Shown here: positions 3,065 through 11,517 of the stretch, piece by piece
How the letters are laid out: every line of letters starts with the position of its first letter
Position numbering within the stretch: the first letter of the stretch is position 1
NCBI GenBank assembly: GCA_023150555.1
Contig: JAKLKQ010000006.1
Coordinates: 51,726 to 115,725, forward strand
Source: Planctomycetota bacterium
Lineage (GTDB): Bacteria > Planctomycetota > SZUA-567 > H5-PLA8
DNA: 64,000 nt
Reading direction: 5' to 3'
The notes under the pieces: generated by a model
What the model saw: the letters and a program-made list of their open reading frames with translations, nothing else
Told to the model about the DNA's origin: nothing
Databases searched by the model: none
Translations under genes and position numbers: made by a program

Positions 3065-3585
3065 TTTCAAGTATTACACTCCGATTATCGTCTTGGGTCA
3101 AGAGCGTTTTTATCGATTTCCTTTCCCGCTCAGTATGAGAATGCCGCGAACCATAGTTCATTTTACAGTCATAAATCGTTTGTTTACTTGAGTTAAAATA
3201 CATAGCTAATGAACATAGAACTAGGTCGAGAAATTATTTTCACGCACGCTGGCCACCAGCTGATAGTGGTTTCTCGGGCCGAAGAGGGGGTGAAAAAAAT
3301 TTCGAGGTGCGCTGGTTCCGTTAATTTCATGCCCTCAAAGGACTTTGGACCTATTAAAATAAGAATTGATATGGCTCGGACGTAAAAAAACATTGTGCAG
3401 ATGTTGACTCCTCGCGAAACTCGGTTTTTATAGGCTGATCGGGCGCTCGAGGGCCGGGTGGAAGCTCATGTCGGAATGCATCCTACAAGGTGCATGCCTA
3501 ATAAATACTTACTTTGGGGTCTCCCATTCTGCCTCGGCGCAGGCTCCCGCTGTGGGATTTGCGCCACGCCCAAATTACGCGGAGG

Positions 3586-4395
3586 ATGGTGGTCATGTTA
3601 CTTTCGTATGCGCAACGGCGCCACATGTACGAGCACGGCTATGTCAGCGTGCCCGGCGTCGTGCCCAAGGTGATGGTCGATGCCGCCTTGCGGGCCATAA
3701 ATCACTCGCTCGGCGAAGGCCTGCCTCAGGAAGAGATCCTCAAGCTGCGCGCCCAGTCGTACTGCCGCGAACTCCAGACCGATCCTGTCGTCACCGACCT
3801 GCTCAACAAGACCCCCGCCTGGACCCTGGGCGAGGAGATGATCGGCCAGCTTAAACCGCGCAAGAGCGCCCAGATCGCGTTGCGCTTCCCCGGGAAGGTG
3901 GGTCCACCGGGCAAGCTCGGCGGGCACCTCGACGGCCTGCCGACCAAGGACAACGGCGTCCCCGTCGACGGGAAATACCACAACTTCACGGCGCTCTGCG
4001 TGATCCTGCTCAGCCGCCTCGACGGTCCCTTCGCGGGAAACTTCACCGTCTGGCCGAGCAGCCACCGCAAGAACGAGCAGTACTTCCGCGAGCGCGGCCC
4101 CGAGTCGTTTCTCAACGACGGCATGCCGAAACTCGACTACGGCGAGCCCGTGCAGATCACCGGCGAGCCCGGCGACGTCGTCTTCGCGCATTACTCGACG
4201 GTCCACACCGCCGCGCCGAACTTCAGCCCGCACGTGCGCTACGCTGCGATCTACCGGCTCGAGCACAACCGCCGCGCCAACGGCGAAAACAGCTACGGGG
4301 ACGTGCTGACGAACATCTGGAAGGAATGGCCCGGCATGCGCGAGTTCGCCCCGGAGGCGGGCTTGCTGGAAGAGGCCAGGGTATCTAGCCCTTGA
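3586..4395 (+). CDS. Phytanoyl-CoA dioxygenase (PhyH) family Fe(II)/2-oxoglutarate oxygenase
   Basis: HLDG...HYSTVHTAAPN-type His/Asp/His facial-triad spacing and PhyH-like length. The ORF track starts at 3514, but the ggagga RBS followed by ATG at 3586 is the better start. Confidence 0.7.
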   Translation: MVVMLLSYAQRRHMYEHGYVSVPGVVPKVMVDAALRAINHSLGEGLPQEEILKLRAQSYCRELQTDPVVTDLLNKTPAWTLGEEMIGQLKPRKSAQIALRFPGKVGPPGKLGGHLDGLPTKDNGVPVDGKYHNFTALCVILLSRLDGPFAGNFTVWPSSHRKNEQYFRERGPESFLNDGMPKLDYGEPVQITGEPGDVVFAHYSTVHTAAPNFSPHVRYAAIYRLEHNRRANGENSYGDVLTNIWKEWPGMREFAPEAGLLEEARVSSP

Positions 4396-4432
4396 TCGAT
4401 AGGCGACTGGTCCTCTCCTGTCGATCTACCCC

Positions 4433-4467
4433 GGGGGCGCGTCGAAAGGCGCGCCCCCAACCTTTTG
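4433..4467 (+). terminator. Rho-independent terminator after the PhyH gene
   Basis: 9-bp GC stem GGGGGCGCG/CGCGCCCCC with a 7-8 nt loop, followed by aaCCTTTTg. Confidence 0.5.
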
Positions 4468-4590
4468 AAAGCATCGCAACCTGTTGTAAATAAATATGTT
4501 ATGTATGAATTTTAGCCTCGTTTTCCCACACCCTTTGGGCCCTTTCGCGCCACTGTCTTATGCAGGTGCGCTTTGCTATAAGGGCATGCC

Positions 4591-5133
4591 GTGACGACGA
4601 TGAGCCGCGACGAACTCGAAGCCCTGGTCCTGGCCCACCAGGCCGAGCTCTACCGCTACGTCCGCTACCTGGGCGCCGCCGACGCCACCGCCGCCGAGGA
4701 CCTCGTCCAGGAATCCTTCCTCGCCGCCTTCAAGAGCGAGAACGCGCCGGCCGCTTCGGAGCCCGCACGGCGCGCCGCCTGGCTGCGCGGCATCGCGCGC
4801 AACCTCTTCCTGCAGTACTGCCGCAGCCGCCGCACCAGCCCCGTGCAGGTCGATACGCAGGCGCTGGAAGCCGGCGAGCGCTTCTGGGCCGAGGACTTCC
4901 TGCGCGGCAGCGACGGCTTCGAGTACATCGAGGCCCTGCGCGGCTGCATGGAGCGCCTGGAAGAGAAGCCCCGCCGCGCGCTGGACCTCTTCTACAAGCA
5001 GAAGCTCTCGCGCACCGACGTCGCCGCGGCCTTCCAGATGACCGAGAACGGCATCAAGTCCTTCCTCCAGCGCGTCCGCGCGGCGCTGGGCGACTGCATT
5101 GAACGGCGCGTCAAGACGGAGCACGGCGGATGA
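4591..5133 (+). CDS. ECF (sigma-70 family) RNA polymerase sigma factor
   Basis: Sigma70 region 2 (ELYRYVRYL...DLVQESFL) and region 4 (ALDLFYKQKLSRTDVAAAFQMTENGIKSFLQRVR). GTG start. The stop overlaps the next gene by 4 nt. Confidence 0.85.
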   Translation: MTTMSRDELEALVLAHQAELYRYVRYLGAADATAAEDLVQESFLAAFKSENAPAASEPARRAAWLRGIARNLFLQYCRSRRTSPVQVDTQALEAGERFWAEDFLRGSDGFEYIEALRGCMERLEEKPRRALDLFYKQKLSRTDVAAAFQMTENGIKSFLQRVRAALGDCIERRVKTEHGG

Positions 5134-6512
5134 ACCGCGACGAAGCCCGCGACCGCCTCGTCGACACGCTCCTGCACGAGGCCTGCGGCGGCGAAGAGCC
5201 CCCGGATCTAAGCGCCCGCGTGCTGAGCCGCGCTTTCCCCAATCAATCCATCTTCGCGCGCGGCAAATCGAAGCGCGTCGACTGGCGCCTGTGGGGCCCG
5301 GCCTTCGGCGCCGCCGCGCTGATGGGCATCGTAGTCGGCCTGTGGCTGGTGCTGGCCAATCGCCCGGCTGCGCCCATCGTGGAGAACAATCCTCCGGAGA
5401 AGAAGGCGCCCGCGCGGCAGCCGCAGGACCGCAAACCCGCGCCGCAACCTGAAGTCGCACCGCAGCCCGAAGTCCCCGAGGTGGAGGATCCCTTCCGCCC
5501 CGGCACCATCGTGCAGACCCACGGCGAGCCCAGAAAGATCGAACTGGCCGGCTACTGCGCGCTGGAACTCATGCCCCACAGCACGCTGAAGATCGAACAG
5601 GCCAAGGGCACCGGCGACGCCCACACCACCCAGGTCGCGCTGCATGCCGGCGCCCTGGAATCGTCGGTCGAACCCGGCCAGGGCGGCTTCGCCGTCACGA
5701 CCGAACTCGGCGCCGTCGCGGTGCTGGGCACGCGCTTCATGGTCAAGCTCGCGCATACCGACGGGCCGCGCGGCGAGGGCAATCGCAAGGGCGAGGGCCG
5801 GCGCCTCGAAATCAAGGTCGCCGAAGGCAAGGTCAAACTCGACGCGCCGATGGGCGACCTCATCCTGAACACCGAACAGAAGGAAGGCGGCATCTTCACC
5901 GGCCTGCTGGTGGGGAAGGACCGCGAGAACAAGAATATCGAAGTCAAGGCCGACTACGACGACGGCGTGCTGAAGCTGGGCCCGCGCTGGATCGGCGGCA
6001 TGCCCGACGCCGGCGGCGGCCCGGACAAGGAAGCGCAGGAGCGCATCGCCAGGGTCTATCCCAGCCACCGCGTGCGCGTGCTGTGGGTGCGCGCCGAAGG
6101 CCCGCGCGTGGCCGGCGTCGAACTGCTGCCGCCCGAAGCCAAGGAAGGCACGGACGAAGGCCGCGTCACCTTTATCGGCGACGCGATGATCGAACTGCGC
6201 ACGACCGCCGGCACCTGGGAGCGCTACATGGCGCGGCAGGTGAAGGGCGACGGCGGGCGCTGGCGCCCCGATGGCGAGATCCTGCACCAGATCGAGCGCC
6301 TGAAGAAGGGCGACCGCGTACGCGTCAGTTGGAAGTACAACGAGCGCAAGCAGATCGGGCGCATCGAGATGCTCGACGGGCCGCGCGAGGGCGCGAAGGA
6401 ACGCGAGGGGCGGGACGCTCCGGTCGAACGGGAAGGCCGGGAAGGAAAGGACCGCAAGGAAGGCGACCGGCCGGCGCAGCCCGACCGCCCCAAAAAAGAT
6501 CGTGACTTCTAA
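5130..6512 (+). CDS. FecR-domain transmembrane anti-sigma factor with a C-terminal tandem-repeat domain
   Basis: Short cytoplasmic N-terminus, one TM helix (GPAFGAAALMGIVVGLWLVLA), a FecR-like segment (AVLGTRFMVKL), then two ~65-aa repeats carrying PRW-x-GG and RVRV-x-W motifs. The gene overlaps the sigma gene by ATGA. Confidence 0.75.
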   Translation: MNRDEARDRLVDTLLHEACGGEEPPDLSARVLSRAFPNQSIFARGKSKRVDWRLWGPAFGAAALMGIVVGLWLVLANRPAAPIVENNPPEKKAPARQPQDRKPAPQPEVAPQPEVPEVEDPFRPGTIVQTHGEPRKIELAGYCALELMPHSTLKIEQAKGTGDAHTTQVALHAGALESSVEPGQGGFAVTTELGAVAVLGTRFMVKLAHTDGPRGEGNRKGEGRRLEIKVAEGKVKLDAPMGDLILNTEQKEGGIFTGLLVGKDRENKNIEVKADYDDGVLKLGPRWIGGMPDAGGGPDKEAQERIARVYPSHRVRVLWVRAEGPRVAGVELLPPEAKEGTDEGRVTFIGDAMIELRTTAGTWERYMARQVKGDGGRWRPDGEILHQIERLKKGDRVRVSWKYNERKQIGRIEMLDGPREGAKEREGRDAPVEREGREGKDRKEGDRPAQPDRPKKDRDF

Positions 6513-6557
6513 GGCGAGCGCATTTTCCGCAACCGCAATGAAAGGGGAACGACGACA

Positions 6558-7115
6558 ATGAAGACGAATGCTTGGACGCTGGGCGTGCTGCTGCTGGGCG
6601 TGGTGGCGTGGGGCGCGCGCGCCGAAGGCGATGGAGCCGAAGGCGGAACCGTCAGCGGCGTGCTGGTCAAGAAGGACGGCGCGACGATCTTCGTGAAGAC
6701 CGACGGGACCGAAGAGGCCGTGAAGTACCGCCCGCGCTGGACCGGCGGGAACCCCGACCAGGGCGGCGGCTTCGACAAGGCGATCGAAGAGCAGATCAAG
6801 AAGATCCCCGTCACCAACCGCGTGCGCGTGACGTGGGTGCTCGAGGAAGGCCGCCGCGTCACCGCCATCGAGTGCGTGAAGCCCGAAGGCGAGAAGGGCG
6901 TCGACGAAGGCACCGTGACGGAAGCCGGCGAGAACTTCATCGAAATCCGCACCGCGGCGGGGACTTTCGAACGCTACCTGCCGCGCTGGCAGGAGGGCGG
7001 GCTCGACAAGGAGATGCTCGCGAAGATCAAGACGTTCAAGGCCGGCCAGAAGGTCCGCGTGGAATGGGTCTACGACGAACGCAAGCGCGTCGTCGGCATC
7101 AGCGGGCAGGAATAA
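6558..7115 (+). CDS. Secreted protein made of two copies of the PRW-GG / RVRV-W repeat (paralogous to the anti-sigma C-terminus)
   Basis: Signal peptide MKTNAWTLGVLLLGVVAWGARA. Two internal repeats (KYRPRWTGGNPDQGGG...RVRVTWV and FERYLPRWQEGG...KVRVEWV) align to the C-terminal half of the upstream anti-sigma factor. Confidence 0.7.
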   Translation: MKTNAWTLGVLLLGVVAWGARAEGDGAEGGTVSGVLVKKDGATIFVKTDGTEEAVKYRPRWTGGNPDQGGGFDKAIEEQIKKIPVTNRVRVTWVLEEGRRVTAIECVKPEGEKGVDEGTVTEAGENFIEIRTAAGTFERYLPRWQEGGLDKEMLAKIKTFKAGQKVRVEWVYDERKRVVGISGQE

Positions 7116-7146
7116 CGCGCCACTATTTTGGGATGCGGAGACAACC

Positions 7147-8196
7147 ATGAACAGCGATCGCAGACGCTTTCTGCTCCTGACTCTCGGCGCCGGAGGCGGC
7201 GCACTGCTGGGCCTCTCCCGGGGCCTGCGCGGTGACGCCGGGCACGCGGCCATCGCGACACCTGCGCCCGTTCCGGCGCCGGCGGACCTCGTCGCCGCCG
7301 AACGCAGCGGCCACGCGCTGGGCGCGAAGGTGGCGATCCGCGCGCTGCACGCCGACGGCGTTACGGCGCAGGCGGCTGCCGACGCGGCCTGGCGCGAACT
7401 CGAGACCGTCGAGGCGCTGATGAGCATCTACCGGCCCTCGAGCGAAGTCTCGCGCCTCAACCGCGACGGCGTCCTGACGGACCCGCATCCTTATACGGTG
7501 GCGGTCCTCACGACGGCGCAGGAACTCGCCGCTCAGAGCGACGGGGCCTTCGACGTCACCGTCCAGCCGCTGTGGGCGCTGTACAGCGCGCACCGCAAGC
7601 TTGGCGGCCTGCCGTCCGAAGATGAAGTCGCCGCCGCTCGAAAGTTCGTCGACTGGCACAAGCTCGAGGTGAACGCCAAGCGCATCCGCCTGGGCGCGCC
7701 CGGCATGGCCGTGACGCTGAACGGCATCGCGCAGGGCTACGCCGCCGACCGCGTGCGCGCCGCGCTTGCGGCGCACGGCATCGAACACGCGCTGATCGAC
7801 ACCGGCGAGATCGGGACCTTGGGCGACAAGGGCGCAGGCACGGATGCGCCGTGGAAGGTCGGCATCCAGCACCCGCGCGAGGAGAACCAGTACATCGCGC
7901 TGGCCGCGCTGCAGGGGCGCTGCCTGGCGACCAGCGGCGACTACGAGACGTTCTTCACTCCCGACCGCGTGAACAACCACATCTTCGATCCGCGCACGGG
8001 GCATTCGCCGCGCGACCTCAGCAGCGTCACCGTCGTGGCCGCCGACGCCACCCGCGCCGACGCGCTCTCGACCGCCGTCTTCGTCGCGGGTCCCGAGCGC
8101 GGGCAAGCGCTGCTGGAAGCGGCGCCCGGCGCCGAGGCCCTGCTGGTGCGCAAGGACGGCAGCATCCTGGCGACCAAGGGCTTCCCGAAGGCCTGA
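7147..8196 (+). CDS. apbE: FAD:protein FMN transferase ApbE (flavin transferase), Tat-exported
   Basis: Twin-arginine signal SDRRRFLLLTLGAGG. ApbE family motifs SRLN, GIAQGYA and TSGDYE. About 350 aa. Confidence 0.85.
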   Translation: MNSDRRRFLLLTLGAGGGALLGLSRGLRGDAGHAAIATPAPVPAPADLVAAERSGHALGAKVAIRALHADGVTAQAAADAAWRELETVEALMSIYRPSSEVSRLNRDGVLTDPHPYTVAVLTTAQELAAQSDGAFDVTVQPLWALYSAHRKLGGLPSEDEVAAARKFVDWHKLEVNAKRIRLGAPGMAVTLNGIAQGYAADRVRAALAAHGIEHALIDTGEIGTLGDKGAGTDAPWKVGIQHPREENQYIALAALQGRCLATSGDYETFFTPDRVNNHIFDPRTGHSPRDLSSVTVVAADATRADALSTAVFVAGPERGQALLEAAPGAEALLVRKDGSILATKGFPKA

Positions 8197-8224
8197 CCGC
8201 GCGGAAACGAAGAGGAGATTCCGA

Positions 8225-9595
8225 ATGCGCTCGAGCGTTTCGTCCCGCACGTTGCTTGCCGCCGCGCTGCTCGCCTGCTGCGCGGGCTCGGCCTGGTCGG
8301 CGGAGCTGGTCCTGACCAACGGCATCCGCGTGAAGGGTACCATCGCGAAAGAAGACGCCAACGGCTTCGACGTCGACGTCGGCGGCGCGCAGATGCACTT
8401 CGACCGCGCGAAAGTCTACACCGTCAGCGACCAGGGCAAGGTGCGCGTGATCACGCCCAAGGAGGTGGCCGTGCCCCCGCCTCCACCTCCGCCGCCGCCA
8501 ACAGCGACGAAGGCCGAACCGCCTGCGACGCCCGCAAAGAGCGAACCGCCGCCGCCCGCGCAAACACAAACCGCGCCACCCAGCGCGACAAAGACCGTCA
8601 CACGCACGCGCGCCGAAGTCGAGGCGCTGATCAAGAAGGAGGGCACCAGCAAGCCGCCCTGGTGGGACCAGTCGAGACTCAACTACCCGCAATCGCTGGA
8701 CATGACATGGCCCTTGAAGCCCAACGGCGGCTGGAACAACCAGGTCAACGTCGGGCAGTACATCTGGGACATCGTCAATCCGAACCCCGACCGCTGGCTG
8801 GAAGGCCTGCGCCTGGTCCACCACCTCATGCAGACCCACGCCAACGACGCCGAACTGCTCAAGCGCGACCTGCGCACCCTCGGCAGCATGTACCACAACC
8901 TGATGGAAGACTACCCGCGCGCGGCCTGGTTCTGGCGCAACGCCGGCGCAAATCACGAAGGCGTCGCCGATTGCTACTGGAAGATGGGCTGCAAGGAGAT
9001 GGCCGTCGAACTGCTCAAGCAGCTCGGCAACGACGACACGCGCCACGGCACGATCATCAAGCTCTGGGCCGACATGGGCGAACTGGACACGGCTCTGCGC
9101 CTGGCCGAAGCGAAAGCCAAGGACGGCCGCCCCGAGGTTGCCTACCTGGCCGCCGGCGAGGCCTGCCGCAAAGCCGGCCAGTTCAAGCGCGCGCTCGATT
9201 TCTTCCAGCGCGTCCTGGCCGTGCAGCAGAACGACACGCAGACCCGACAGAACGACTTCAAGCAGACCTACGAACGCGCGAAGGCCAGCATCGAAGCCAT
9301 CCAGGTCTACGAGATGCTCGACCTCGCGAAAGTCCGCGACGGCACCTACTCCAGCGACAGCTACGGTTACTCGGGGCAGGTCTTCGTCGACGTGACCGTC
9401 CAGCGCGGGAAGATCACCGACGTGAAGGTGCCGCGCCATACCGAGCGTCAATTCTACGGCGCCCTCGACAACACGACGAAGCAGATTCTGGACAAGCAGA
9501 GCGTGAAGGACATCGACACCTTCTCCTCCGCGACGATCACCAGCGAAGCCATCGTCAACGCGGCCGCCAAGGCCCTGGCCAGCGGCATGAAATAG
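8225..9595 (+). CDS. Secreted FMN-binding-domain protein (probable ApbE flavinylation substrate) with a Pro-rich linker and helical middle domain
   Basis: Signal peptide, a 10-proline run, and a C-terminal FMN_bind-like domain (YSGQVFVDVTVQRGKITDVKV...SVKDIDTFSSATITSEAI) with the D-x-x-S-S-A-T flavinylation-like motif. Confidence 0.75.
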   Translation: MRSSVSSRTLLAAALLACCAGSAWSAELVLTNGIRVKGTIAKEDANGFDVDVGGAQMHFDRAKVYTVSDQGKVRVITPKEVAVPPPPPPPPPTATKAEPPATPAKSEPPPPAQTQTAPPSATKTVTRTRAEVEALIKKEGTSKPPWWDQSRLNYPQSLDMTWPLKPNGGWNNQVNVGQYIWDIVNPNPDRWLEGLRLVHHLMQTHANDAELLKRDLRTLGSMYHNLMEDYPRAAWFWRNAGANHEGVADCYWKMGCKEMAVELLKQLGNDDTRHGTIIKLWADMGELDTALRLAEAKAKDGRPEVAYLAAGEACRKAGQFKRALDFFQRVLAVQQNDTQTRQNDFKQTYERAKASIEAIQVYEMLDLAKVRDGTYSSDSYGYSGQVFVDVTVQRGKITDVKVPRHTERQFYGALDNTTKQILDKQSVKDIDTFSSATITSEAIVNAAAKALASGMK

Positions 9596-9624
9596 GCTGC
9601 GCAGGCGCGCTACGGACGGGATAG

Positions 9625-11517
9625 ATGTTCCGACTCGATTTTTTCCTTCCGTTCCTCGCGCGCCCGCGGAAGGGCGAGGCGCCCCGCGCGCCGGGGCGCC
9701 TGGCCCGCGTCGCGCGCGTCGTGCTGCCCGCCGCGCTCTTCTCCGATCCGGCCGCCGCGAAGCCCGGGCTGGTCCGCCGCGCGCTCAAGAAGATCGGACC
9801 CATCACCGCGTATTCCCCGTTGCGCCGCGCGGTGCAGGCGCTCTGCTTCGTGCTCTTTCTCGTGCTTTTCTTCCACGTCTGCTGGCCGTACAGCGCGCAG
9901 CCCGGCGGGAAGCTGGAGCTGGATAGCGGCGCGTGGCCCGCGCACTACGCGATCGACCTCGACGCGAAGGAGTGGACCGAGGCGGAGCTCTTCCTGGTGC
10001 TCGACCCGCTGGTGGCGCTCTCGACGGCCGTCGCCGCGAAGGCGTGGGTCTGGTCGCTCGCCTGGGCGGGCGGCATCCTCCTTATATGCGTGCTCTTTCC
10101 GCGCGGCTTCTGCGGGTACCTCTGCCCGCTCGGCACGCTGATCGATTTCTTCGACTGGGCGATCGGCAACCGGGTGCAGCGCTTCAAGATCGAAGGCGAC
10201 GGCTGGTGGGTGCACTTTAAGTACTACCTGCTCGCGGGAATCTTCCTCGCGGGGTTCTTCGGCGTGCTGCTGTCGGGCATCTTCGCGGCGATCCCGGTGA
10301 TCACGCGCGGCTTCCTCTTTATCTTCGGCCTGCTGCAGATGGGCCTTCTGCGGGGCTGGCACCAGGTCCCGCCGCTGAACGCCGGGCATTACGTCTCGAT
10401 CGCGCTCTTCCTGGGCGTGCTCGGCCTGGGTCTGCTGCGCAAACGCTTCTGGTGCCGCTACGTCTGCCCGTCGGGCGCGGTCTTCAGCGTCTTCAACCGC
10501 TTCCGCGCCAGCGAGCGCAAGGTCGAGTCGAGCTGCATCCACTGCGACAAATGCATCGAGGTCTGTCCTTTCGACGCGATCAAGGCCGACTTCACCACGC
10601 GCACGCCCGACTGCACGCTCTGCCAGACCTGCGGCGGCGTCTGCCCCACGCACTCGATCAAGTTCGTCGAACGCTGGAACGTGCAGGACCTCAAGCCCCA
10701 GAACGATCCGCCCACGATGGAAGTGCCGCTCAGCCGCCGCAACTTCCTCTACGGCGCGCTGGGGTCGCTCGCCGCTGTCAGCGGCATGCGCAACGTTTTC
10801 GGCGCGGATCTCGGGAGCTCCAACGCTTTCCTACCCGTGCGCCCGCCCGGCAGCGTGCCCGAGCCCGAATTCCTGCAGCTCTGCATCCGCTGCGGCGAAT
10901 GCTTCAAGGCCTGCCCAAACAACGTGCTTCAGCCGCTGGGCTTCGAGCAGGGCTTGGAAGGTCTCTGGACGCCGCAGGTCGTCGCCGACTGGTCGGGCTG
11001 CGAGACCAGCTGCAACAACTGCGGCCAGGTCTGCCCTACGGGCGCGATCCACGCACTGTCGCTGGAAGAGAAGAAGGTCGCGCGCATGGGCCTGGCCATC
11101 GTCAACCGCGAGACGTGCCTGCCGTGGGCCGGCAAGGAAGCCTGCCAGCTCTGCTTCGACGAATGCAATGCCGCGGGTTACCGCGCGATTGAGTTCCAGA
11201 ACGTCGGCACGCAGGTCGACGAGGAAGGCCTGCCCATCGACGGCAGCGGCTTCCTGGCGCCGGTGGTGAAACCCGAACTCTGCGTCGGCTGCGGCCTGTG
11301 CCAATCGCGCTGCCACCACGCCGTCGTGCAGCTGAAGAAACTCGAAGAGAGCGCCATCGTCGTCGAAGCCGGCGCCGGCAAGGAAGACCGTTTCATGCAG
11401 GGCAATTACCTGGAACTGCGCGCGCAGGAAGCCGCCGAGCGCCGCCGAAAGCAGGAAGAGTTCGAGAAGGCGCACGGCGCGGCCGGCGACGGCTACCTGC
11501 CGGAGTTCCTGAAATAA
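9625..11517 (+). CDS. NapH/MauN/NosR-type membrane polyferredoxin (multiple 4Fe-4S clusters)
   Basis: Membrane CGYLCPLG and CRYVCPSG motifs typical of NapH/MauN/NosR, followed by several CxxCxxCxxxCP ferredoxin motifs (CIHCDKCIEVCP, CTLCQTCGGVCP, CIRCGECFKACP, CNNCGQVCP, CVGCGLCQSRC). Confidence 0.8.
   Translation: MFRLDFFLPFLARPRKGEAPRAPGRLARVARVVLPAALFSDPAAAKPGLVRRALKKIGPITAYSPLRRAVQALCFVLFLVLFFHVCWPYSAQPGGKLELDSGAWPAHYAIDLDAKEWTEAELFLVLDPLVALSTAVAAKAWVWSLAWAGGILLICVLFPRGFCGYLCPLGTLIDFFDWAIGNRVQRFKIEGDGWWVHFKYYLLAGIFLAGFFGVLLSGIFAAIPVITRGFLFIFGLLQMGLLRGWHQVPPLNAGHYVSIALFLGVLGLGLLRKRFWCRYVCPSGAVFSVFNRFRASERKVESSCIHCDKCIEVCPFDAIKADFTTRTPDCTLCQTCGGVCPTHSIKFVERWNVQDLKPQNDPPTMEVPLSRRNFLYGALGSLAAVSGMRNVFGADLGSSNAFLPVRPPGSVPEPEFLQLCIRCGECFKACPNNVLQPLGFEQGLEGLWTPQVVADWSGCETSCNNCGQVCPTGAIHALSLEEKKVARMGLAIVNRETCLPWAGKEACQLCFDECNAAGYRAIEFQNVGTQVDEEGLPIDGSGFLAPVVKPELCVGCGLCQSRCHHAVVQLKKLEESAIVVEAGAGKEDRFMQGNYLELRAQEAAERRRKQEEFEKAHGAAGDGYLPEFLK

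Follow-up and report, generated by a model that had tools for sequence, protein, structure and literature searches.

We describe here a small protein domain of about 80 residues which a planctomycete carries in two neighbouring genes, as the extracytoplasmic end of an anti-sigma factor and as a free secreted protein. Both genes lie in a 64,000-nucleotide stretch of a Planctomycetota bacterium genome (assembly GCA_023150555.1, contig JAKLKQ010000006.1, positions 51,726 to 115,725; hereafter the window), and all coordinates below refer to its plus strand unless another locus is named. The FecR-type anti-sigma factor (460 amino acids, aa; 5130..6512) is encoded directly after an extracytoplasmic function (ECF) sigma factor and ends in two units of the domain, A1 and A2, followed by a charged tail. 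The adjacent secreted protein (185 aa; 6558..7115; MCK6470968.1, annotated by NCBI as 'hypothetical protein' and derived from a Planctomycetota metagenome-assembled genome, MAG) consists of a signal peptide and two further units, S1 and S2. Structure models give every unit the oligonucleotide/oligosaccharide-binding (OB) fold, and what is new is an OB family not catalogued before, which also gives anti-sigma factors of a known class a novel input module.

A repeat shared by the anti-sigma factor and the secreted protein

A sequence-only reading of the window had claimed that one repeat is common to the extracytoplasmic C-terminus of the anti-sigma factor and the adjoining secreted protein, and both BLASTP and an independent hidden Markov model (HMM) bear this out. 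BLASTP joins aa 252-409 of the anti-sigma factor to aa 28-178 of the secreted protein in one colinear alignment, with 46% identity, 63% positives and E=3e-40, and the out-of-register matches (E=6e-5 and 8e-4) expose an internal duplication. A non-circular HMM, built from 44 single-unit proteins of other organisms only and run with Z set to 1e6, recovers two units in each of the two window proteins, with E from 1.6e-25 to 1.4e-8. Local-alignment z-scores against 500 shuffles were 30.9 for A1-S1, 24.5 for A2-S2, 13.4 for S1-S2 and 6.2 for A1-A2. Since the foreign-only profile matches all four units and the shuffle z-scores range from 6 to 31, a merely compositional similarity is ruled out. The repeat is visible in protein only, with none found at the DNA level, and tblastn revealed no additional OB unit in the window.

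The motifs quoted in that reading (PRWIGGMPDAGGGPDKEA...HRVRVLWV, PRWTGGNPDQGGGFDKA...NRVRVTWV and PRWQEGG...KVRVEWV) were all found, and both open reading frames (ORFs) are as it described them. Its unit size of about 65 aa has to be enlarged to about 80 aa. The statement that the anti-sigma C-terminus consists of two copies holds for aa 252-414, where the two units stand, but not for the charged 46 aa that come after.

An unnamed family with a predicted OB fold

In the models each unit is an OB fold, with the order strand 1, strand 2, strand 3, helix, strand 4, strand 5, which corresponds to a five-stranded closed or semi-open beta-barrel with the helix between strands 3 and 4. By sequence, no known domain could be assigned, and this candidate explanation was rejected after Pfam, NCBIfam and the PDB had given negative results with single sequence and profile. 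The full secreted protein has no match in Pfam-A 2025 or NCBIfam 20.0 at E up to 0.1, periplasmic OB families like CusF_Ec and BOF included. When 15 single units were compared with Pfam at E up to 10, scattered sub-threshold noise was obtained, headed by RodZ_C (0.035, in 3 of the 15), and no precomputed Pfam domain lies on the proteins from two word-indexed searches that are displayed with Pfam annotation. Among PDB sequences there was no significant match, the best E values (0.019 for the single sequence, 0.27 for the profile) belonging to unrelated proteins. Full-text searching of the literature gave no paper on the OB domain, only general ECF classification and RsgI papers. Because no named family matches by sequence, yet the OB strand order appears in every modelled unit, we consider the unit, on these models, to represent a sequence family that is new although its fold is very well known. 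The domain was thus rightly called unrecognised as far as sequence goes, but its fold is a familiar one.

The family signature reads W-x-GG-x-P-xx-GGG-x-D ... W-xxx-E-xx-R. In the numbering of the secreted protein the near-invariant positions are W61, G63, G64, P66, G69-71 and D73, which fall where strand 3 ends and in the loop leading to the helix; W93 in strand 4; and E97 and R100 in the turn between strands 4 and 5. Judging from the models, these residues probably sit on the canonical ligand face of the OB fold. The consensus of anti-sigma-borne units keeps the conserved motif, and so does A1.

The AlphaFold2 model of the secreted protein has a mean predicted local distance difference test score (pLDDT) of 85.6, with 90-97 inside the units. 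Its Sec-type signal peptide, aa 1-22 (6558..6623), ending in AWGARA and followed by EG, was read off the sequence and has pLDDT <50; the orthologs P0001-P0004 have one as well. Unit S1 (aa 29-106; 6642..6875; motif PRWTGGNPDQGGGFDKA; independent HMM E=1.6e-25) is modelled with strands at 29-40, 43-48 and 54-59, a helix at 74-82 and strands at 88-95 and 99-106, at pLDDT 90-95. Unit S2 (aa 113-183; 6894..7106; E=6.6e-19) has strands at 113-123, 128-132 and 137-142, a helix at 151-158 and strands at 165-172 and 176-183; its Gly-rich loop is degenerate, shortened to PRWQEGGLDKE by a 6-residue deletion.

The anti-sigma factor and its class

The full anti-sigma factor was modelled with a mean pLDDT of 79, rising above 90 in the FecR and OB parts. 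Several features place it in the FecR-type class, namely the adjacent ECF sigma factor, the predicted N-terminal helices within aa 3-35, one transmembrane helix and the FecR domain itself (PF04773, aa 130-236, E=2.3e-9, 38 bits vs a cutoff of 24). The N-terminal cytoplasmic part (5130..5249) contains modelled helices at aa 3-20 and 28-35 and the motif DRLVDxLLxExxGGExPPDL, and the region aa 1-40 presumably acts on the sigma factor, as in its class. A single transmembrane helix at aa 56-76 (5295..5357), read from the model and from the hydrophobic sequence, is followed by a Pro-rich disordered linker with stretches of pLDDT <50 from aa 80 to 114. The FecR beta-sandwich comes next (aa 127-246; 5508..5867), supported by Pfam, by the model and by Foldseek, which links it to the putative anti-sigma structures 4m0h (E=2e-7) and 4m0n and to the C-terminal signalling domain of PupR (6ovk_R, 1.2e-5).

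After the FecR domain stand the two OB units and the disordered tail, and not the C-terminal subdomain that is canonical for cell-surface signalling. Unit A1 (aa 252-332; 5883..6125; independent HMM E=4.2e-17) carries the canonical motif PRWIGGMPDAGGGPDKE, is about 48-50% identical to S1 and is modelled as strand-strand-strand-helix-strand-strand with pLDDT >90. Unit A2 (aa 339-414; 6144..6371; E=1.4e-8) has the OB topology in the model and 48% identity to S2; its loop is degenerate (ARQVKGDGGRWRPDGE), the Trp and the GG-P-GGG motif being lost. The tail, aa 415-460 (6372..6509), is of low complexity (R/E/K/G/D/P; REGAKEREGRDAPVEREGREGKDRKEGDRP...) and predicted to be disordered (pLDDT about 50). 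A similar charged stretch also precedes the units in a free family member, P0006, at aa 22-70. No TonB-dependent receptor was matched by Pfam or NCBIfam among the six proteins of the operon, these six being the part of the window that was screened.

Distribution, architectures and genomic contexts of the family

A profile search of 1.84 billion cluster representatives gave 607 proteins when E up to 1e-3 was allowed, 421 of them with E up to 1e-10, so that the family comprises about 600 clusters at 50% identity. They come mainly from Planctomycetota; the named sources are Planctomycetota (many of them Gemmataceae), some Opitutia/Verrucomicrobiota and one Armatimonadia MAG. A word-indexed search with the secreted protein had returned just 4 near-orthologs; the family as a whole came to light only when the C-terminus of the anti-sigma factor, a profile of the unit and an exhaustive HMM search were used.

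The members include single-unit secreted proteins of 110-125 aa and others, likewise secreted, that have 2-5 units. Of 48 long members, 27 have a FecR domain N-terminal to 1-4 units, three are Ser/Thr kinases with the units at the extreme C-terminus, and one is an EF-hand protein. Its recurrence in FecR anti-sigma factors and in Ser/Thr kinases, C-terminal in both, supports the supposition of the sequence-only reading that this is a sensor-type module, and we conclude that the OB domain repeatedly serves as the outer module of signalling proteins without being confined to them. A constant linkage to ECF systems, the other possibility raised there, falls away: of the genomic copies found, the majority encode free secreted proteins in unrelated surroundings.

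Two groups of long members deserve a separate mention. P0180 (1380 aa), P0185 (1213 aa) and P0195 (1133 aa) carry OB units at the extreme C-terminus and would correspond to the three Ser/Thr kinase entries of the Pfam summary, which names no members. Five others (P0068, P0107, P0148, P0186 and P0198) have sigma-70 regions 2 and 4 in the same polypeptide, with a recognisable sigma-like N-terminus in four of the five; they may be true sigma/anti-sigma fusions or merged gene calls.

Genomic context was surveyed at 27 loci of species-representative genomes, to which a short metagenomic contig, L034, was added. In a close relative, L001, the whole operon is syntenic. Pairs of a sigma factor and an anti-sigma factor of the FecR-OB type occur at L017, L018, L020, L023, L028 and L030, and also at L034. 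Counting the window and L001 as one, this makes eight lineages, and seven could be judged, the contig of L034 being too short. An adjacent free paralog is present in two of the seven, the window lineage and L017, where, 6 nt after the sigma gene and the gene of a one-unit anti-sigma factor, comes that of a free, secreted OB protein with one unit. Downstream of the remaining five are unrelated genes, for a GDSL lipase, a TPR kinase, a histidine kinase, an FGE-sulfatase and ThiD2/TMP-TENI thiamine-biosynthesis domains. Since the pairing is seen in only these two lineages, a free decoy or partner is not obligatory to OB-anti-sigma systems.

The N-terminal motif of the anti-sigma factor, DRL(V/I)DxLLxExLGGExPPDLxxR(I/V)LxRAF, is strongly conserved. 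Used as a query, it led to nine metagenomic loci (L038-L046) that have the cognate sigma factor and OB units in none; their anti-sigma C-termini are wholly different and often much longer (up to about 900 aa). Because the same N-terminal motif and cognate sigma factor are paired there with other C-termini, the C-terminus appears from these sequences to be an exchangeable input module.

A putative selenoprotein next to single-unit members

At 17 loci outside the window the gene just downstream of a single-unit OB gene encodes a conserved protein of about 343 aa that contains two PDZ domains. In the 16 of these loci that were examined (L002, 8453-9676; L010, about 8290-9551; L008, L009, L011, L013-L017, L019, L021, L022 and L024-L026), the PDZ reading frame runs upstream through an in-frame stop codon, TGA in all 16, into an ORF with a signal peptide. 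This upstream ORF ends in ...LVFRC-E/D-P-[TGA]-x-D-C, a thioredoxin-like CxxU arrangement (Trx-like hereafter), after which come CIHCH and the two PDZ domains; gene callers divide the gene into ORFs of 63 aa and 334 aa. When 14 of these loci are aligned, a conserved hairpin of 7 bp, its loop containing GGU, starts 19 nt 3' of the TGA, and one of its pairs covaries (AU in 7, GC in 6, CG in 1). These features suggest that the Trx-like/PDZ gene probably encodes a secreted selenoprotein that partners the single-unit OB proteins. In L017 (about 3560-3645) a further in-frame stop stands in place of the motif Cys (AFR-stop-IP-[TGA]), which could be a second selenocysteine codon or a sign of a decaying gene. 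A tblastn search found the Trx-like/PDZ partner absent from the window.

Gene row, promoter and neighbouring genes

The sigma factor (180 aa; 4591..5133) consists of sigma-70 regions 2 and 4 alone (Sigma70_r2, PF04542, and Sigma70_r4_2, PF08281), at the length of about 180 aa that is characteristic of ECF factors, and scores 53.8 bits against the ECF superfamily model TIGR02937, whose cutoff is 42.9. Its top NCBIfam match is TIGR02989, the Rhodopirellula/Verrucomicrobium ECF family, with a score under the cutoff of that family. The stop of the sigma gene overlaps the start of the anti-sigma gene by 4 nt, and the subsequent genes of the row are spaced by 28-45 nt. The gene of the secreted protein has a GGGGA ribosome-binding site about 9-10 nt upstream. 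Compared with the L001 orthologs, the ratio of nonsynonymous to synonymous substitution rates (dN/dS) is 0.25 for this gene and 0.36 for the anti-sigma gene, which indicates purifying selection on both.

A putative ECF-type autoregulatory promoter lies at 4521..4557 and is made up of a T-tract, CACACCC(TTT), 13 nt and GCGCCACTGT. The motif (T)GCACCC, a spacer of exactly 13 nt, and GCGCAACT(A/G)T is found after a T-tract 30-60 nt before the orthologous sigma genes of L001, L017, L018 and L028, and variants of it (GAACCC/GACCCC; GCGATA/GCACT) are recognisable in L030, L038, L040-L043, L045 and L046. In the 64 kb of the window it occurs with zero mismatches once only, at the position given above, and no further copy was found before gene 6558 or anywhere else in the window.

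Upstream of this promoter, a perfect G+C-rich hairpin (CCCCGGGGGCGCG...CGCGCCCCC) at 4425-4460, 3' of a PhyH-like gene (3514-4395), is kept in L001; between hairpin and promoter there is an unusually A+T-rich stretch of 60 nt. The hairpin is probably a terminator or insulator that separates two transcription units.

Three more genes, identified by Pfam and NCBIfam, follow on the same strand, encoding ApbE with a twin-arginine leader (RRRFLL; 7147-8196), a TPR and FMN_bind protein whose leader is lipoprotein-like (8225-9595) and a single protein of 630 aa in which a NapH-like membrane part is joined to a NapG-like polyferredoxin (9625-11517). Together they look like a module for electron transfer from quinol to a periplasmic flavoprotein. 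Synteny of the set extends to the close relative L001 only; the other OB-anti-sigma loci lack it, and a conserved link of OB genes to ApbE/FMN_bind/NapHG was therefore rejected.

The 4-nt overlap, the 28-45 nt gaps, the failure to find a terminator-like site on the plus strand from 4300 to 9600 and the single conserved promoter upstream of the sigma gene lead us to infer that the sigma, anti-sigma and 2xOB genes form a single, sigma-dependent and autoregulated operon, whose transcript probably includes the redox genes 7147-11517 as well.

Probable origin of the sensor module and possible mechanisms

The in-register pairs A1-S1 and A2-S2 (z about 25-31) exceed the cross-unit comparisons (z 6-9) so far that the duplication must have concerned a two-unit block. 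Orthologs aside, the anti-sigma units are most closely related, in register, to the neighbouring S units, whereas the S units have closer relatives among free two-unit proteins (P0087, with 60%/54%, and P0069), neither of which has adjoining ECF genes. On this account the free form would be ancestral and the sensor module derived; most probably, as far as the sequences tell, a free 2xOB gene was duplicated as a block and the copy then became fused to the anti-sigma factor.

We tentatively favour, at slightly less than an even chance, the following reading: the anti-sigma factor receives its extracytoplasmic input through the double-OB module, and the free paralog is a co-induced product with the same module that buffers the signal. 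The OB repeat would be an extracytoplasmic binding module, used mainly in Planctomycetota, and the tandem pair would stand where a FecR-type anti-sigma factor usually has its C-terminal subdomain and act as the signal input, while the adjacent gene would supply the same pair as a free Sec-exported protein. The autoregulated promoter would drive the sigma and anti-sigma genes, the 2xOB gene and probably the redox genes, so that the free protein would be the output of a switch whose sensor carries the binding module of that very protein. Because sensor and product have this module in common, the induced protein may bind the same ligand or partner as the sensor, and by buffering or titrating the signal it would provide a negative feedback.

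The independent repetition of the sensor/free-paralog arrangement in L017 speaks for the buffering reading, and together with the tight operon it disfavours pure coincidence. Several points weigh on the other side. Five of the seven judged lineages have no free OB gene in the flanks, so the pairing is not general; the second unit of each protein is degenerate in the motif, each in a different way; a ligand common to both modules is argued from homology and probable co-transcription, and the latter, like the sigma dependence of the promoter, from the nucleotide sequence; the placement of the conserved residues on the binding face was judged from secondary structure and not from coordinates.

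These same observations can be distributed differently. The two proteins may be neighbours without functional coupling, the free 2xOB protein having its own periplasmic job, for instance with the ApbE/FMN-binding/NapHG module, while the anti-sigma factor acquired a locally available binding domain and senses something unrelated. That free OB proteins mostly occur without ECF genes and in varied contexts, that the single-unit forms have another conserved partner in the 17 Trx-like/PDZ loci, and that the pairing is rare among anti-sigma loci all agree with this, but the tight operon behind a single ECF-type promoter, the recurrence in L017 and the retention of the conserved motif in A1 do not, and we regard such independence as rather unlikely, if a serious contender. 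OB domains often oligomerise, and the free protein might instead bind the homologous anti-sigma module directly, as a homotypic partner or decoy in a periplasmic partner switch, the arrangement suggested in the sequence-only reading, shielding it from site-1 proteolysis (as RseB does for RseA) or displacing a self-interaction. The paralogs are adjacent and probably co-transcribed, and the unit numbers agree in both paired lineages, 2+2 in the window and 1+1 in L017. Against a homotypic contact stand the five lineages lacking an adjacent free paralog; moreover, the free protein of L017 is an ordinary single-unit family member, 74% identical to that of L022 and with no special kinship to its anti-sigma neighbour, and A and S are just 46% identical with no sign of concerted evolution. 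We therefore hold direct binding of this kind to be unlikely. The broader proposition that a periplasmic paralog-for-paralog exchange sets ECF activity, with OB units as a general ligand-sensing currency of planctomycete signalling through anti-sigma factors and Ser/Thr kinases, seems to us more doubtful still; if true, it would amount to a new regulatory principle for ECF systems. A periplasmic pair of metallochaperone and metal sensor, modelled on CusF/SilF, with a metal ion bound by both OB modules, is very improbable: the unit has no conserved Met, His or Cys that could act as the CusF/SilF ligands, its invariants being Trp, Gly, Pro, Asp, Glu and Arg, which makes a CusF-like site unlikely, and Pfam CusF_Ec gives no match at E up to 10.

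Relation to known systems

The FecR/PupR systems (PF04773; 6ovk; BDI_1681, 4m0h) are alike in the ECF sigma gene directly upstream, the short cytoplasmic N-terminus, the single transmembrane helix and the periplasmic FecR beta-sandwich. They differ in that their C-terminal subdomain contacts a TonB-dependent transducer, where the protein described here has two OB units and a charged tail, and in that the present sigma factor is of the planctomycete/verrucomicrobial type nearest to TIGR02989 and not FecI-like. RseA-RseB of the sigma-E system resembles our operon in that a soluble periplasmic protein is encoded directly after the anti-sigma factor in the sigma operon; however, RseB binds the periplasmic domain of RseA and is not homologous to it, whereas here the two are paralogs.

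With the other members of the OB superfamily, such as CusF/SilF and the nucleic-acid binders SSB/PriB, the identity is 5-20%, and the units have a signature of their own; a nucleic-acid role like that of SSB/PriB is implausible because the proteins are exported.

A parallel in logic is offered by Clostridium thermocellum, where the RsgI anti-sigma-I factors sense through extracellular modules (CBM3, PA14, GH-like) that have homologous counterparts in the secreted cellulosomal proteins under their control (PMC6852018, PMC10328401). There, as may be the case here, the input module is paralogous to the binding module of the secreted proteins of its own regulon. The likeness is an analogy, with no homology claimed: sigma-I is not an ECF factor, the anti-sigma and sensor folds are other ones, the ligands are known polysaccharides and the hosts are Gram-positive. 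A paralogous free protein in the same operon is consequently unusual, though its logic is not unprecedented.

Planctomycetes are very rich in ECF sigma factors, of which only a minority have a known input. A ligand found for the small, soluble free protein could be tested directly on the sensor, and the operon offers a small system in which to study a sensor derived by copying a product of its own regulon. If the free paralog does not bind the sensor directly, the system would be a useful and unsurprising addition to the modular inputs of anti-sigma factors; if it does, this would constitute a new mode of control for an ECF switch.

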